From the NCBI GenBank assembly GCA_964016885.1, contig OZ024742.1, forward strand, positions 313,348,001 to 313,412,000: a DNA stretch of 64,000 nucleotides, given 5' to 3'. The position numbers were made by a program, and so were the translations under genes. Below are positions 6,597 through 25,257 of this stretch, piece after piece. How positions within the stretch are numbered: the first letter of the stretch is position 1; each line of letters opens with the position of its first letter. Source of the stretch: Eledone cirrhosa. Taxonomy: Eukaryota. Under the pieces are notes generated by a model that saw nothing but the letters and a program-made list of their open reading frames with translations, was not told where the DNA came from and did no database searches.

Positions 6597-6630
6597 ATGA
6601 CAGGCTGAATGAAACTTAAGTACCTGTATA
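6597..6630 (+). ncRNA. Decayed hammerhead ribozyme (stem II deleted), family of 23443-23500
   Basis: ACAGG-CTGA-AT-GAAA-CTTAAG-TA^CCTGT. Downstream sequence is homologous to 23491-23586. Confidence 0.55.
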
Positions 6631-7678
6631 TATCACTACTGTAACTGATTGTACTGAACTCATTCTATTGACTGAGTGCTCTAAACCCTTGATATTTATA
6701 CCAAGTTTGTATTTTTGTTCTACAATATATATATATATATATATATATATATATATATATATATATATATGATGGCTGCAAACTCTGCAAAGAGCATTGC
6801 AATCGCTTGTCAGATTACAGAAAATGGTGCACTTTTAGGCTACGGCCAGCCACACAAACCTGTAACAGATCCTGAACAAGCAATGCCTGTGCTTTGAAGC
6901 TTTTTTTAAGTGAGGAAAAGCCTTCCACTCGACCAATCCCACTCTCTGAACATCGAAAACACTACCCAAAAAGGAGAACTGGTCCACATCATCGGATGCT
7001 TCTGAAGACGCAGAGTTTTTTTCAGAGTTTCCCACGCTTAGCAAGATGTTGTGACAACAACTGGGGGCCTTTCACTCACAGGTGAAAAAAAACTATTTGG
7101 ATGGCCGTTGACTCTGTTGAGTTCCTCTGCCCTTTGCCAGGTTTTGTATTTCATCCTGCAAGGTGTCCAAATATCACCCTCCTCACCAAGCAAGCTTGGT
7201 GGGTTTGCTGGTTTAGTCACTGATGACCCGACCATGAGACAGGTTTTGTACTGGGTTACATGTTACCAGTAGCACTCGAGAACAACCTGACAAACATATA
7301 TATATATATATATATGTTTGTCAGGTCGCTTTCGAGTGCTACTGGTAACATATATATATATATATAATATATATATATATATATATATATATATATATAT
7401 ATATATATATATATATATATATAATATATATATATATATATATAATATATATATATAATATATATATATATATGTAGGAGGTGAGTAATGTTGTAGAACA
7501 ATAAAACTATACATATATCAGATAAGTAGCACTCAACAGTTGGTAGAACTGGAGTATATATAAAGAAGAAATTAAAAGATAGCTAAGGAACATACGTTAA
7601 CGGTTGAAGTTTTCTTTGGATAGTTCAACCGTTAAGGTATGTTCCATGGCTATGTCAAAATTTATAAAACACACTTTG

Positions 7679-7740
7679 TATTTTATCTGATGAAAGCGTA
7701 CCAAAGTTTTTGGTACCCTTGAAATATATATAATAGAATA
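7679..7740 (+). ncRNA. Type I hammerhead ribozyme (minimal, palindromic stem III)
   Basis: TATTTTAT-CTGATGA-[AAG/CTT, C.C, GTACCAAA/TTTGGTAC]-GAAA-TATATA-TA^ATAGAATA. All core nucleotides present, 8-bp stem I. Confidence 0.85.
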
Positions 7741-8057
7741 AATATGGTTTTATAAATATAGTTTCCATTTATTTAATATCATTGTATATTATACTCCATA
7801 AAACTTGTCGAGTGCTCTGAATCAGTTATAAACATTTATATTTGTTGAATTACCAACAAATTGAATATCCCTTCTGCGTATATATAATATATATATATAT
7901 TATATATATATATTATATATATATATATAATATATATATATATATATATAATATATATATATTATATATATATATAATATATATATATATATAATGTATA
8001 TATATATAATATATATATATAATATATATATATTATATATATATATATATATATATG

Positions 8058-8770
8058 TAAGTATGTATGTATACGTACATACATATATGTATACAGACGT
8101 ACAGTAGTATGCATATATATATATATATATATATATATATATATATATATACATACAGGTACACATATATATATGTACGTATCAGTTTAGCGGACGTTTA
8201 TTATAACGCCCGCTTTGTCCGTTTGTAAACAAACGGACAGCCTGATTTATGCCGTACGGTGTTAAGGCAACCACGTCACCTTTTTGTTCAACACTGACAC
8301 AGGAACGATGTACTAGTTTCAAGCTTCTTAGCTATCATCAGCACCGTATACCCTTCTGCCAGATGGTTGAACGTTCGAAAGTATATACTTTCCTTATGAA
8401 AATTAACGGCTGAGCAGCCTAATTTGCATATCGAGTGAGTTCAGTCGGCCAGGCGCACCGAAAACGATAAGTCGAAATAGAATGAAACGAAATTTCATTT
8501 CTCACTCTTAGTACGGCACTTACTTAAATGTATGTATGTATACGTACATACATATATGTATACAGACGTACAGTAGTATGCATATATATATATATATATA
8601 TATATATATATATATATATACATACAGATACACATATATATATGTACGTATCAGTTTAGCGGACGTTTATTATAACGCCCGCTTTGTCCGTTTGTAAACA
8701 AATGGACAGCCTGATTTATGCCGTACTAAGAGTGAGAAATGAAATTTCGTTTTATTCTATTTCAACTTAT
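8058..8770 (-). mobile_element. Non-coding Penelope-like pseudo-LTR unit (direct repeat plus inverted tail) carrying a hammerhead
   Basis: About 200-bp direct repeat (8060-8256 and 8530-8726). About 8467-8518 is an inverted copy of 8721-8770. Bounded by (TA)n. Confidence 0.7.
8305..8347 (-). ncRNA. Type I hammerhead ribozyme (minimal)
   Basis: Minus strand ACGGTG-CTGATGA-TAGCT aaga AGCTT-GAAA-CTAG-TA^CATCGT. 6-bp stem I. First stem II pair is U.U. Confidence 0.8.
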
Positions 8771-9361
8771 ATATATATATATATATATATATATATATAT
8801 ATATATATATATATATATATATATATATAAAAGATATATATAATATATATATATATATATCATCATTATTTTACGTTTGCTTTTCCCTGCTTGCAAGGAT
8901 GGGACAGGAACTGATTCTGGGTTGATTTCTACAGCTGGATGCCCTTTCTAACACCAACCTCATTTACAGTGAGTGCTGGGTGCTTTTTTTCCATGGCGCC
9001 TACACGTCCACTTTACAGTGTGGGCTGGGTGCTTTTTTGCCGTGGCACCTCCACGACCACTTTGCAGTGAAATGATATATATATATATATATATATATAT
9101 ATATATATATATATATATATATATATATATTAATTTCAACAATGTCAGTATTCCGTGTGTCATAATTCTCGATTATCATTGGTTCATAGGTTTCAAACGA
9201 CTCTGCCCACCTCAACGACGCCAAACTTAAATTAATATGCATAATGCCAATGAGGGAGTGAGAGGGGAGAGTAAGAAACAGAGAGGCAAAGTGAACGCTG
9301 TAACTATTACCATGTGTGCGTGTGTATGTACGTGCGCGTATGTTTATGTGTGTGAGCGTGC

Positions 9362-9616
9362 ATGCAGCGGTCCACAGAAAGTAAAAGAAATTCGACTTCA
9401 TCAAACAGTGAACTACAGCGGCGACGGCGTGCAGCCAGGAATGAAGAAAAACGGGCCGAACAGCGCCATCGGAACGCCGAACTTCAGAGGCGAAGACGTG
9501 CCGCCATGAATGAAGAGCAGCTGGTTCAACAACGCCAACGAAACACTGGAGCCAAGCAGCGCCGGCGTGCTGCGATGTTTGAAGACGAACTGGCTGAGCA
9601 TCATCTTTTATATTAA
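9362..9616 (+). mobile_element. Probable Helitron RepHel N-terminal repeat fragment
   Basis: Repeats of QRRRRAAxxEE resemble the charged repeats at the N-terminus of animal Helitron proteins. Directly abuts a Helitron-like element. Confidence 0.5.
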
Positions 9617-9619
9617 ATA

Positions 9620-23275: not shown

Positions 23276-23586
23276 ACTGAAGTAAAAGTTAAGTGGAAAT
23301 ATCCAAGAGTAAGAGGACTCAGTCCTTAGGACAAGTTTAGTATAAATAATTACAACAGTGACATAAACAGGTACTCAAGTTTCGTTGGGTTCTGGACCCC
23401 AATTTCTGTAATGAAAAATGAAAAATGCTTTTCATTTTTCTCATGACAAGCTGAAGAAATTGGAGCCCAGACCCCAACAAAACTTGAGTACCTGTTTATG
23501 TCACTGTTGTAATTATTTATACTAAACTTGTCCTAAGGACTGAGTCCTCTTACTCTTGGATATTTCCACTTAACTTTTACTTCAGT
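23276..23586. repeat. Fold-back element (~130-bp arms) between (TA)n tracts; pseudo-LTR with inverted partial copy
   Basis: 23276-23407 is the reverse complement of 23455-23586. Contains a decayed hammerhead. Confidence 0.88.
23443..23500 (+). ncRNA. Decayed hammerhead ribozyme (GAAA mutated to AAAA)
   Basis: ACAAG-CTGAAGA-AATTGG..CCAAC-AAAA-CTTGAG-TA^CCTGT. The inverted copy near 23365-23406 retains GAAA. Confidence 0.6.
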
Positions 23587-23660
23587 GTATATATATATAT
23601 ATATATATAGTAATGAAATGACAGGAGGCTGGATTTGTGTAAATCCTTGAAAGGTTTATT

Positions 23661-23718
23661 ATACTATGATCATTTCAATGACCGGGTTCCGTATGAATCC
23701 GGTGATATCATCAGGTAT
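23661..23718 (-). ncRNA. Type I hammerhead ribozyme
   Basis: Minus strand ATAC-CTGATGA-[TAT C ACCGG ATTC atacg GAAC CCGGT C ATT]-GAAA-TGATCA-TA^GTAT. Palindromic stem III. Confidence 0.75.
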
Positions 23719-24159
23719 TCGAAATATAATACGTGAATGTAATAGATAAAATCCATGGGGCTGAAAATCGAGGACCCGAGGGCGACCGTTATTCTGTTCC
23801 TTCAACTTCAGCCGGTCGCCCTGGAGTGACGTGGCTAAAGTTTATAGTATGCTACTACCGCTCAGATAAACGAAAACAGAAAGGGATGGGAACATAAGTT
23901 AACGTCGATCTCATGACACAAGGTAAAAGAAAGTGTATATATATATATATATATATATATATATATATATATATATATATACATACATATATATATATAT
24001 ATACATATATATATATATATATACATATATATATATATATATATATATATATATATATATATATATATATATATATATATATATATATATATATATACAC
24101 ACACACACACACACACACACACACACACACACACACACACACACTGAAGTAAAAGTTAA

Positions 24160-24488
24160 GGCACATGGCTTAGTGGTTAGTGGTTAGAGCATTAGGCTTG
24201 CAATCGAAAGGTTGTGAGTTCAATTCTCAGACCGGGTGATGTGTTGTTTACTTGAGCAAGACACTTTATTTCACATTACTCAGCTGTAGAAATGAGATGA
24301 TAGGAACTGGGGTGCATATCATTCCACTGCAAAGTGGTCGTTAAAAAAAGCACCCAGCACTCACTGTAAATGAGGTTGGTGTTAGGAAGGGCATCCAGCT
24401 GTAGAAATCAAGCCAGAATCAGTTACCGTCCCACCCTTGCAAGCAGGGAAAAGCAGACGTAAAATGAAATGATGATGATGATGATGAT
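24160..24488 (+). mobile_element. tRNA-derived SINE with RTE-type 3' tail (further copies near 8860-9070, 17280-17672, 22190-22452, 49455-49793)
   Basis: A box TGGCTTAGTGG, B box GAGTTCAATTC, RTE-like terminus and (GAT)n tail. Confidence 0.8.
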
Positions 24489-24492
24489 ATAT

Positions 24493-25040
24493 ATCATCAT
24501 CATCATCATCATCATCATCGTTTAACGTCCATGTTCGACGCTTGCATGGGTTTGGACGGGAGTTTTCCCACTTGAGGCAAGAGTAGTTGTCTTGCTCGCA
24601 TAGGACTGTCTGGCGGGTTTTCTACAGCTGGATGCCCTTCCTAACACCAACCACATTTACAGTGTGGGACTGGGAGGTTTTTACCGTGTTACCTACACGG
24701 CCACATTACAGCGTGGACTGTGTGTTTTTTTGTCGTGACACCTACACGATCTCATTTGTTTCGGCCTGGATGTTGTGGCACCAACATAACTTTACATTGA
24801 AAGGGGTGGTGGGACGGGAGTGTGTTTTGTTAGAGATGCCTACTGACTGTAGTAGGTTTTACTTTGTATTCAGGTAAGGCGGGTCTTCTCTATTACTGAG
24901 TACCGCCAAAGATCTCGGTCCAGTGACATTGTCTTGGAGAGGTGTAAGTGTGTGAGGTCAGAATTTATCAGGTCGTGCCAGGTTTTTCTGGGTTTGCCTA
25001 CTCCGTGGCTACCATCTATCTTTATTGCCCTGCACTTTTT
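24493..25040 (-). mobile_element. RTE LINE 3' fragment (also 48918-49452 on +)
   Basis: Near-identical to the 22545-23260 element but with a single 3' UTR unit. Confidence 0.85.
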
Positions 25041-25257
25041 TATACCCCTGCACTTTTTTATACATATATATATATATGTGTGTGTGTGTGTATAATAAGT
25101 GGTTCAGTAGATTCGTGGTTTACTGAGGAGGGTACCAAAATCAGCACTCTAATGTAAGGCAGAGTGTATAAATTAAAAACAAGACAAGGTTTCACATTAA
25201 GGTCTTTATTGATTACACACAGTTATTACTGTTTCACAGATGGGTGGCTCAGGAAGG

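Follow-up and report, generated by a model that had tools for sequence, protein, structure and literature searches.

The window analysed here is a stretch of 64,000 nt from Eledone cirrhosa (assembly GCA_964016885.1, contig OZ024742.1, positions 313,348,001 to 313,412,000 of the forward strand), in which short units bearing hammerhead ribozymes lie in (TA)n microsatellites around the open reading frame (ORF) remnant of a Penelope-like element (PLE). An initial annotation had placed the field between 6597 and 25257 (the interval) and described it as a (TA)n-targeting system of solo pseudo-long terminal repeats (pLTRs) or retrozyme-like families. Similar units were also found outside the interval, at 45.8 kb and 61 kb. 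The coordinates are collected in Table 1. Where "in part" follows a source, the statement rests on a portion of that source.

Hammerhead units and the ORF-bearing element

All six hammerheads that had been called near-complete were located with exact cores by a descriptor scan. The strict descriptor (exact CUGANGA/GAAA/UH core, stem I of 4-8 bp, self-complementary stem III loop) gave no match besides these six in the whole window and none in 100 local dinucleotide shuffles of the 18.8-kb region. A tighter initial descriptor gave 1 site only, and a looser one recovered the same six and one further site, 61030-61109, with no match in 77, one in 22 and two in 1 of 100 whole-window shuffles. Chance motifs as the source of the hammerheads were rejected. 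With the looser descriptor 6 sites fell inside the interval and 1 outside; because the interval was drawn after the fact, this local clustering was not taken as significant. Rfam reported no hammerhead among the 150 of 234 matches listed, which were microsatellite-driven, miRNA-type matches.

The six ribozymes are of type I, with a self-complementary loop III and cleavage after UA, the latter being found in 44 of the 48 hammerhead-bearing Hydra loci fetched for comparison (see below). Stem II folds in all six, its base being weak at 14119 and 23661. The self-complementary loop III marks the dimer-dependent form of PLE hammerheads, which on their own cleave poorly (PMC4209133, in part) and may need protein for cleavage (PMC11167929, in part). 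The window hammerheads are probably pLTR passengers of this dimer-dependent type, and isolated monomers are predicted to be inactive. Stem II regions of 60-61 nt were seen at 14133-14193, 21592-21651 and 61037-61097, the length being conserved between the 14119 and 21573 hammerheads; in the 48 fetched loci this region was far shorter (10-24 nt).

Four more hammerheads, listed earlier as decayed or partial, were recognisable by eye and by homology. Stem II is gone at 6600-6627; the copy at 11844-11888 has one core change and a stem II change, G>C in 97% of the family depth; at 23446-23495 GAAA has become AAAA and the inverted arm keeps the 3' half only; and only the 3' half is left at ~25222-25240 on the minus strand. 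Pairwise scores separated at least six sequence families, where at least five had been proposed: family A (7679/12080), family B (14119/21573), family C (6597/23443) and the singletons 8305, 11845, 23661 and 25190.

The enrichment of the units at (TA)n was borne out. A run of (TA)≥4 lay within 160 nt downstream, in the ribozyme sense, at 10 of 11 sites compared to 25% of background positions, the threshold having been chosen after looking; counted over independent units, adjacency was 9 of 10 (p ~3e-5). The 25190 site, at a distance of ~150 nt, passes this threshold; at 21573, the one site that fails, the tail stands inverted on the other side. That the units are multi-copy was likewise supported for families A and B by read depth, which was analysed over 9135-14400 in four sequencing runs (X1, X5, X7 and X8) and reached 55k-142k over 11951-12302 for family A and 8.7k over 14239-14400 for family B.

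The ORF remnant contains the thumb of a reverse transcriptase (RT), a CxCX5C linker and, C-terminally, a GIY-YIG domain with CxxC and CxH, and has no CCHH. The motifs read CNCRNRVDC, CDLC and CKH, and the conserved N is changed in this copy. These are the diagnostics of the Hydra clade, in which CxxC and CxH stand around a conserved E and N; canonical hammerheads occur in its members, and (TA)n is the insertion target of nearly all of them (Craig et al. 2021, PMC8557442). The remnant aligned by hhalign with ten full-length RWK/DKT proteins at a probability of 100% (E 2.6e-49). RWK and DKT are present in the nearest full-length homologs, and the N-terminal part has been truncated away in the window copy. 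Protein searches returned 31 and 40 homologs, all at ≤50% identity. Pfam yielded no family for the ORF and none convincing for three full-length homologs, no second Hydra-type ORF remnant was found in the 64-kb window, and no Hydra relative was found in viral contigs. On its motifs the remnant is assigned to the Hydra clade; membership was rested on these motifs because the quick tree had no outgroup and a very long window branch, the core RT of the window copy being missing.

The ORF had earlier been called Naiad-type, and this label had to be changed. Naiads share the (TA)n target and occur as remnants in cephalopods, but they have an N-terminal GIY-YIG, a CxC motif before the RT and no canonical hammerhead (PMC8557442), whereas here the endonuclease is C-terminal with Hydra-specific motifs and the element's own 3' untranslated region (UTR) bears a hammerhead. 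A Naiad ORF with unrelated ribozyme units is thus refuted by domain order, and we give it practically no weight.

The window element agrees with the Hydra clade in its domain layout, in the canonical hammerhead near the 3' end, in its (TA)n target, in inverted 5'-truncated copies and in an optional tail (PMC8557442). The supplement of that paper lists Hydra-1_Obim from Octopus bimaculoides, and octopus PLE expansions are on record (PMC13282606, in part). The window element is not of the Hydra-1_Obim family: its thumb sequence differs by eye, and its 3'UTR has ~980 nt with a 731-nt intron compared to ~200 nt in Hydra-1_Obim.

This intron has a strong donor, a polypyrimidine tract and an acceptor, and ends ~100 nt before the hammerhead. 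It was retained in most copies, and the joints 11015>11747 (cut +2) and 11017>11750 remove it precisely. Such joints were found in 3 X1 contigs, at depths of 532 and 729 compared to 39k-65k inside the intron, and in 2 X8 DNA reads. The 3 nt of microhomology at the joints allows chance deletion, and the library type of X1 is not on record; even so, a small subfamily derived from spliced RNA seems to us a fairly likely origin of the intron-less copies, ahead of chance deletion. The pLTR introns of Penelope and Chlamys-3 likewise lie just upstream of the hammerhead (PMC8557442; PMC4209133 and PMC2377424, both in part). As in D. virilis Penelope and Chlamys-3_cRei, a spliceosomal pLTR/5'UTR intron was retained in genomic copies; the differences are its length of 731 nt and its precise absence from a minority of DNA copies. 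Intron retention is the norm in PLEs and has been proposed to reflect an antisense template (PMC3846280). If the spliced origin is true, intron-less DNA copies would show that spliced sense RNA can template PLEs, which bears on that proposal. One fetched Hydra element (L052:3142-4400) has ~1.1 kb between stop and hammerhead, as the window element does, and may also hold a pLTR intron. Some copies of the ORF family carry tandem duplications of 97-138 nt across the 3' splice site (11630-11767).

Table 1. Hammerheads, element ends and related features in the window
Feature	Positions	Strand	Remarks
Type I hammerhead	7679-7740	+	strict descriptor
Type I hammerhead	8305-8347	-	strict descriptor
Type I hammerhead	12080-12144	-	strict descriptor
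Type I hammerhead	14119-14212	+	strict descriptor; stem II region 61 nt
Type I hammerhead	21573-21665	-	strict descriptor
Type I hammerhead	23661-23718	-	strict descriptor
Family C 3' end	6582..6724	+	decayed hammerhead 6600-6627; bulged stem-loop variant 6658-6680; (TA)n at 6725
Inverted tail	7473..7612	-	textbook bulged stem-loop 7529-7555; head-to-head junction with the 7679 unit via decayed palindrome 7579-7653; closer to family C than to family A
Family A 3' end	7620..7878	+	hammerhead 7679-7740, cleavage after 7732; stem-loop 7793-7816, then (TA)n
Unit outside the Hydra-type assignment	8057..8770	-	minimal hammerhead 8305-8347, 4-nt palindromic loop III; partial-tandem and inverted layout between TA runs; no Hydra-type stem-loop
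Inverted 3' tail of ORF-bearing element (Hydra by motifs)	10004..10069	-	continues 11919 in other copies; degenerate stem-loop at best
ORF remnant (Hydra clade by motifs)	10070..10936	+	5'-truncated; frameshifted near 10706-10712
GT-AG intron, 731 nt	11018..11748	+	in 3'UTR/pLTR of ORF-bearing element
3' end of ORF-bearing element	11844..11919	+	decayed hammerhead; adjoins (TA)n 11917-11930
Family A 3' end	11931..12300	-	hammerhead 12080-12144; stem-loop 11990-12021; meets the ORF element tail-to-tail at a shared TA run
Family B 3' end	14092..14337	+	hammerhead 14119-14212; textbook bulged stem-loop 14262-14289; TA end
Family B body	21525..21680	-	hammerhead 21573-21665; stops ~3-6 nt before stem-loop position
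Inverted tail of 21573 insertion	21681..21797	+	decayed stem-loop; (TA)n at 21798
Family C inverted pair	23277..23587	.	right arm (+) hammerhead 23446-23495 with core change; left arm (-) hammerhead 3' half only; stem-loop variant in both arms; each arm ends in (TA)n
23661 unit	23610..23935	-	hammerhead 23661-23718 between two TA runs; ends 56 nt past cleavage site, no stem-loop
25190 unit	25077..25240	-	hammerhead 3' half ~25222-25240; stem-loop 25143-25165; (TA)n end
Stem-loop unit outside the interval	45790..45909	+	stem-loop 45840-45864; (TA)n at 45910
Hammerhead unit outside the interval	60924..61180	+	hammerhead 61030-61109; body stops 1 nt before stem-loop position; tail with degenerate stem-loop inverted on 5' side; (TA)n end

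A duplicated bulged stem-loop at copy ends

Several of the ORF-less units share ACTC...GAGTGCT ~35-65 nt past the cleavage site. In the window there were 8 ACTC..GAGTRCT matches compared to at most 3 in 100 shuffles; two of them fold as an exact bulged hairpin, and a variant of the stem-loop, decayed in some cases, occupies the same place in 7 of the interval's 10 units.

The same structure was found in Hydra-type loci from other taxa. From the best 80 of 435 confirmed loci 79 were fetched, of which 48 have a hammerhead after the ORF, 26 have none (in many of them the 3' sequence is short) and 5 are without the C-terminus. The motif GCTC-N-GAGCRC-T was present 37-58 nt downstream in 34 of the 40 loci with at least 100 nt of downstream sequence, representing 17 of 19 clusters, whereas none of 523 upstream windows and 23 of 4000 shuffles had it. 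In its fold a stem of 4 bp leads into an upper stem, with a 2-nt U-N bulge between the two on the 3' side (GCUC-stem-UN bulge-GAGCRCU). With the fixed motifs as anchors for counting pairs, the first pair above the bulge formed in 25 of 25 representatives with a 2-nt bulge, compared to 0, 0, 3 and 5 of 25 with bulges of 0, 1, 3 and 4 nt. This pair was Watson-Crick in all 85 distinct sense copies (62 C-G and 23 U-A), the switch between C-G and U-A requiring five changes on a quick tree, at least 2 of them on well-supported branches. The window variant ACUC/GAGUGCU, which most of the ORF-less units have, is compensated relative to GCUC/GAGCRCU and, together with the 60-nt stem II regions of some units, sets the window families apart from other Hydra.

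Of 67 ORF starts, 56 are preceded by a second stem-loop at a distance of 12-49 nt. The order in the Hydra pLTR is stop, 3'UTR, hammerhead, stem-loop 1, stem-loop 2 and ATG of the next tandem copy. In the published consensus sequences (PMC8557442 supplement, in part) the motif could be read by eye in Hydra-2_Amil, Hydra-1_Ajap and Hydra-2_Ajap and, less exactly, in Hydra-1_Crog, covering coral, sea cucumber and copepod; Hydra-1_Ajap starts, by eye, 2 nt before stem-loop 1, and Hydra-1_Amil has by eye no clear stem-loop. The duplicated bulged stem-loop is contained in these sequences but is not described in the text, "stem-loop" and "hairpin" having 0 matches in the text and supplement of PMC8557442. 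The hexamer after the bulge is AGTGCT in the window (e.g. at 6674, 7810 and 14283) and AGCACT in other taxa, which are exact reverse complements; AGTACT at 45859 and AGCGCT in one fetched locus (L051) also fit AGYRCT, a hint of symmetric recognition.

The stem-loop was then compared with the ends of natural copies by aligning each 3' copy with the pLTR-ORF junction of the same family (reference score ≥90), a procedure in which 31 of the 48 loci were set aside (17 tandem, 7 ending at contig ends and 7 without a good reference). Among the 17 mappable insertions 13 ended at -4 to +1 nt of a stem-loop (p ~6e-11, uniform model), the first stem-loop accounting for 4 of them and the second, or the only mapped one, for 9. 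In 67 of 91 cases the 10 nt preceding the hairpin included a TA-rich 4-mer, a count made without control. In the window, the 21573 body stops 3-6 nt short of the hairpin position and the 61030 body 1 nt short of it, and each has its hairpin-bearing tail in inverted orientation on the 5' side. The units that include the hairpin end 45-66 nt past it, approximately where the second hairpin is expected.

While the anatomy, covariation and end positions of the stem-loops are observations, we infer that the stem-loop fixes two reverse-transcription start sites, which would explain the PLE "tail". The RT-endonuclease would bind the bulged stem-loop on unspliced sense RNA, the GIY-YIG domain would nick (TA)n, and cDNA synthesis would begin 1-4 nt 5' of the stem-loop, in many cases where there is a short TA-rich match. 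Use of stem-loop 1 would give a tail-less copy and use of stem-loop 2 a copy with a ~60-nt tail; use of both, one per target strand, would give a body with an inverted tail, as may have happened at 10004-11919, 21525-21797 and 60924-61180. Early termination would leave hammerhead-only remnants of 150-350 nt. Priming from both target strands resembles L1 twin priming. We lean, by a small measure, towards the general form of this proposal, namely that in Hydra PLEs the duplicated covarying stem-loop is the RT start signal, that the tail is the stretch between the two, and that any transcript with one hairpin could be mobilised in trans, whether a tail-bearing solo pLTR like families A-C or spliced RNA as for the intron-less copies.

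Among the closest known systems is PAc, a Poseidon element of Anolis carolinensis, for which two-site internal initiation at a stem-loop was observed in vitro, both target strands being extended and ribozyme cleavage being dispensable (Frangieh et al. 2024, PMC11167929, in part). On the proposed mechanism Hydra would resemble PAc in having two adjacent internal starts near a stem-loop downstream of the hammerhead, in the tail as the stretch between the starts, and in both target strands being cut and extended. Unlike Hydra, PAc starts inside the ORF at one AC-rich stem-loop, with no conserved motif in the main text of that source, whereas in Hydra one covarying hairpin is present twice in the non-coding pLTR, and each copy marks one end.

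The main rival for the initiation step is a role of the hairpin in DNA, where, extruded or single-stranded, it would serve as a recognition or resolution signal for the endonuclease, so that cleavage rather than RT initiation sets the copy ends. Recognition of plasmid DNA by the D. virilis endonuclease required the tail (cited in PMC11167929, in part), and Craig et al. (PMC8557442) ascribed the tail to endonuclease-mediated resolution; the reverse-complementary hexamers would suit such a role, as would the weak strand bias of G-U over A-C counts (10 vs 6). However, copies end 5' of the hairpin, so that the product lacks the signal, which is what a primer positioned on RNA would give, and two-site internal initiation was seen directly for the Poseidon element. 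We therefore regard the DNA-level role as improbable, though it deserves attention.

Hammerhead-bearing Hydra elements in (TA)n have already been published, including one octopus element; the new part is the bulged hairpin in two copies and the way in which copy ends coincide with it. No prior description of either was found in the open literature, where Fig. S1B and S2C of PMC11167929 (on the PAc stem-loop) may bear on novelty. Internal start-site choice by the RT, the optional tail and the need for partial tandems are open questions in PLEs, addressed by one in vitro study. PLE RTs are the closest relatives of telomerase RT. A hairpin of 25-30 nt with complete covariation at one pair, occurring twice per end and 1-4 nt from natural copy ends, can be tested by mutation and offers an easy way to recognise short unclassified repeats as parts of Hydra elements.

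Origin of the ribozyme-only units

Read depth over the ORF family increased towards its 3' end. In X1 the summed contig depth was 86k at the 5' break and 233k where the ORF ends, rising further to 505k at 11599-11774 and 1.32M at 11775-11950, the bin of the hammerhead end; the peak over this end was repeated in X5 and X7, and in the read data the 3' end of the ORF family was ~6-15x deeper than its ORF. This is the usual gradient of 5' truncation, and ribozyme-only ends are therefore a normal product of the ORF family. A joint of 10069 with 11919 on opposite strands was found in 5 contigs of X1, 1 contig of X5 and 898 reads (103 starts) of X8, which identifies 10004-10069 as the 3' tail of the element itself, in inverted position on its 5' side, a layout drawn in Fig. 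2 of Craig et al. (PMC8557442).

We judge it likely that the field consists of independent, heavily 5'-truncated insertions of several PLE families, mostly Hydra, into (TA)n, with copy ends set by the stem-loop. Of the interpretation offered by the initial annotation, the (TA)n-targeting, hammerhead-bearing PLE system was supported by the Hydra motifs and the (TA)n ends, and its solo-pLTR option, in the form of 5'-truncated copies, by the depth, the inverted tail and the stem-loop, while the retrozyme option failed in the window on its defining trait.

Retrozymes are defined by head-to-tail monomers (PMC7229834; preprint 10.64898/2026.07.22.740005; both in part). Were the units non-LTR retrozymes, they would be tandem non-coding monomers cut by consecutive hammerheads and circularised. 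The likeness is real: in animal non-LTR retrozymes (Cervera and de la Pena 2020, PMC7229834; Li, Clavereau and Pollet 2026; both in part) type I hammerheads likewise occur in short AT-rich non-coding units related to PLE pLTRs, the 150-350-nt size range fits (PMC7229834, in part), and dispersed monomers of retrozyme families exist (preprint 10.64898/2026.07.22.740005, in part). Unlike in retrozymes, of which circular RNAs are a trait according to the same partial sources, no head-to-tail monomers were found in the window: ribozymes of the same family and strand were never adjacent there, no array reported by the tandem finder contained a ribozyme, and the back-joints 11767>11630/11639, among the 15 of 692 joints listed, lie upstream of the ribozyme. 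The retrozyme reading is accordingly very unlikely.

For the ORF-less units the main rival is that some families are non-autonomous, SINE-like (short interspersed element-like) pLTR-only RNAs which keep stem-loop 1 and are copied in trans by the Hydra RT. No coding remnant lies beside A, B, C or 23661, the families are multi-copy at the depths given above, and their common stem-loop variant is cleaner than that of the ORF-bearing family; non-autonomous Chlamys elements that form pLTRs have been published (PMC8557442). On the other hand, the 5' ends vary, even within the ribozyme, as in random truncation, the members of family pairs are diverged, and units bearing stem-loop 1 end 45-66 nt past it, where stem-loop 2 is expected, so the template still had both stem-loops. 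Such families appear unlikely, at about the level of the DNA-level hairpin. Pattern scans gave 0 matches for family A in genome contigs and 0 for family B in viral contigs.

Several points weigh against truncated Hydra insertions with stem-loop-set ends. Summed contig depth cannot be read as copy number, and a short TA run falls within the peak bin. No ORF-less family (A, B, C, 23661, 25190 or 8305) was physically linked to an ORF, their tie to Hydra elements being an indirect one by way of the stem-loop, and the clade call depends on motifs, given the tree described above. In the end mapping most loci were set aside and 4 of the 17 insertions that could be mapped depart from the pattern; few samples and clusters supplied the fetched loci. 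The body of the ORF-bearing element ends 26 nt, not 1-4 nt, before a merely degenerate hairpin, the 8305 and 23661 units have no stem-loop, and the Hydra-1_Obim consensus shows by eye no clear one (in part). Finally, the window variant differs from other taxa at two positions, one of them not compensatory, and the hairpins taken singly show no unusual stability (z -4.5 to +0.6).

Neighbouring elements

Two small features were also noted. An inverted pair around a short TA run at 7230-7350 has GAGTGCT in each arm without an upstream ACTC partner, and a 17-nt piece at 24145-24162, identical to the extreme 3' end of family C, stands alone beyond the TA/CA run at 23936-24144.

A multi-copy unit of ~360 bp at 9618-9978 starts with TC, has a GC hairpin and ends in CTAG/T, a signature which we take to resemble a non-autonomous Helitron. 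At 12400-14091 (-) there is a broken RTE-like long interspersed element (LINE) with an RVT_1 match and very high depth; its other copies run on past 14091, where the family B unit starts. A perfect 512-bp inverted repeat with a 13-nt spacer at 20260-21296, composed of an RTE-like LINE end and a SINE head, is either a very young foldback or an assembly artefact. At 44838-45010 (-) lies the probable last coding exon of a host membrane-protein gene, presumably TMEM41/VTT-like, for which there was an Atlas lead to VTT_dom (0.80).

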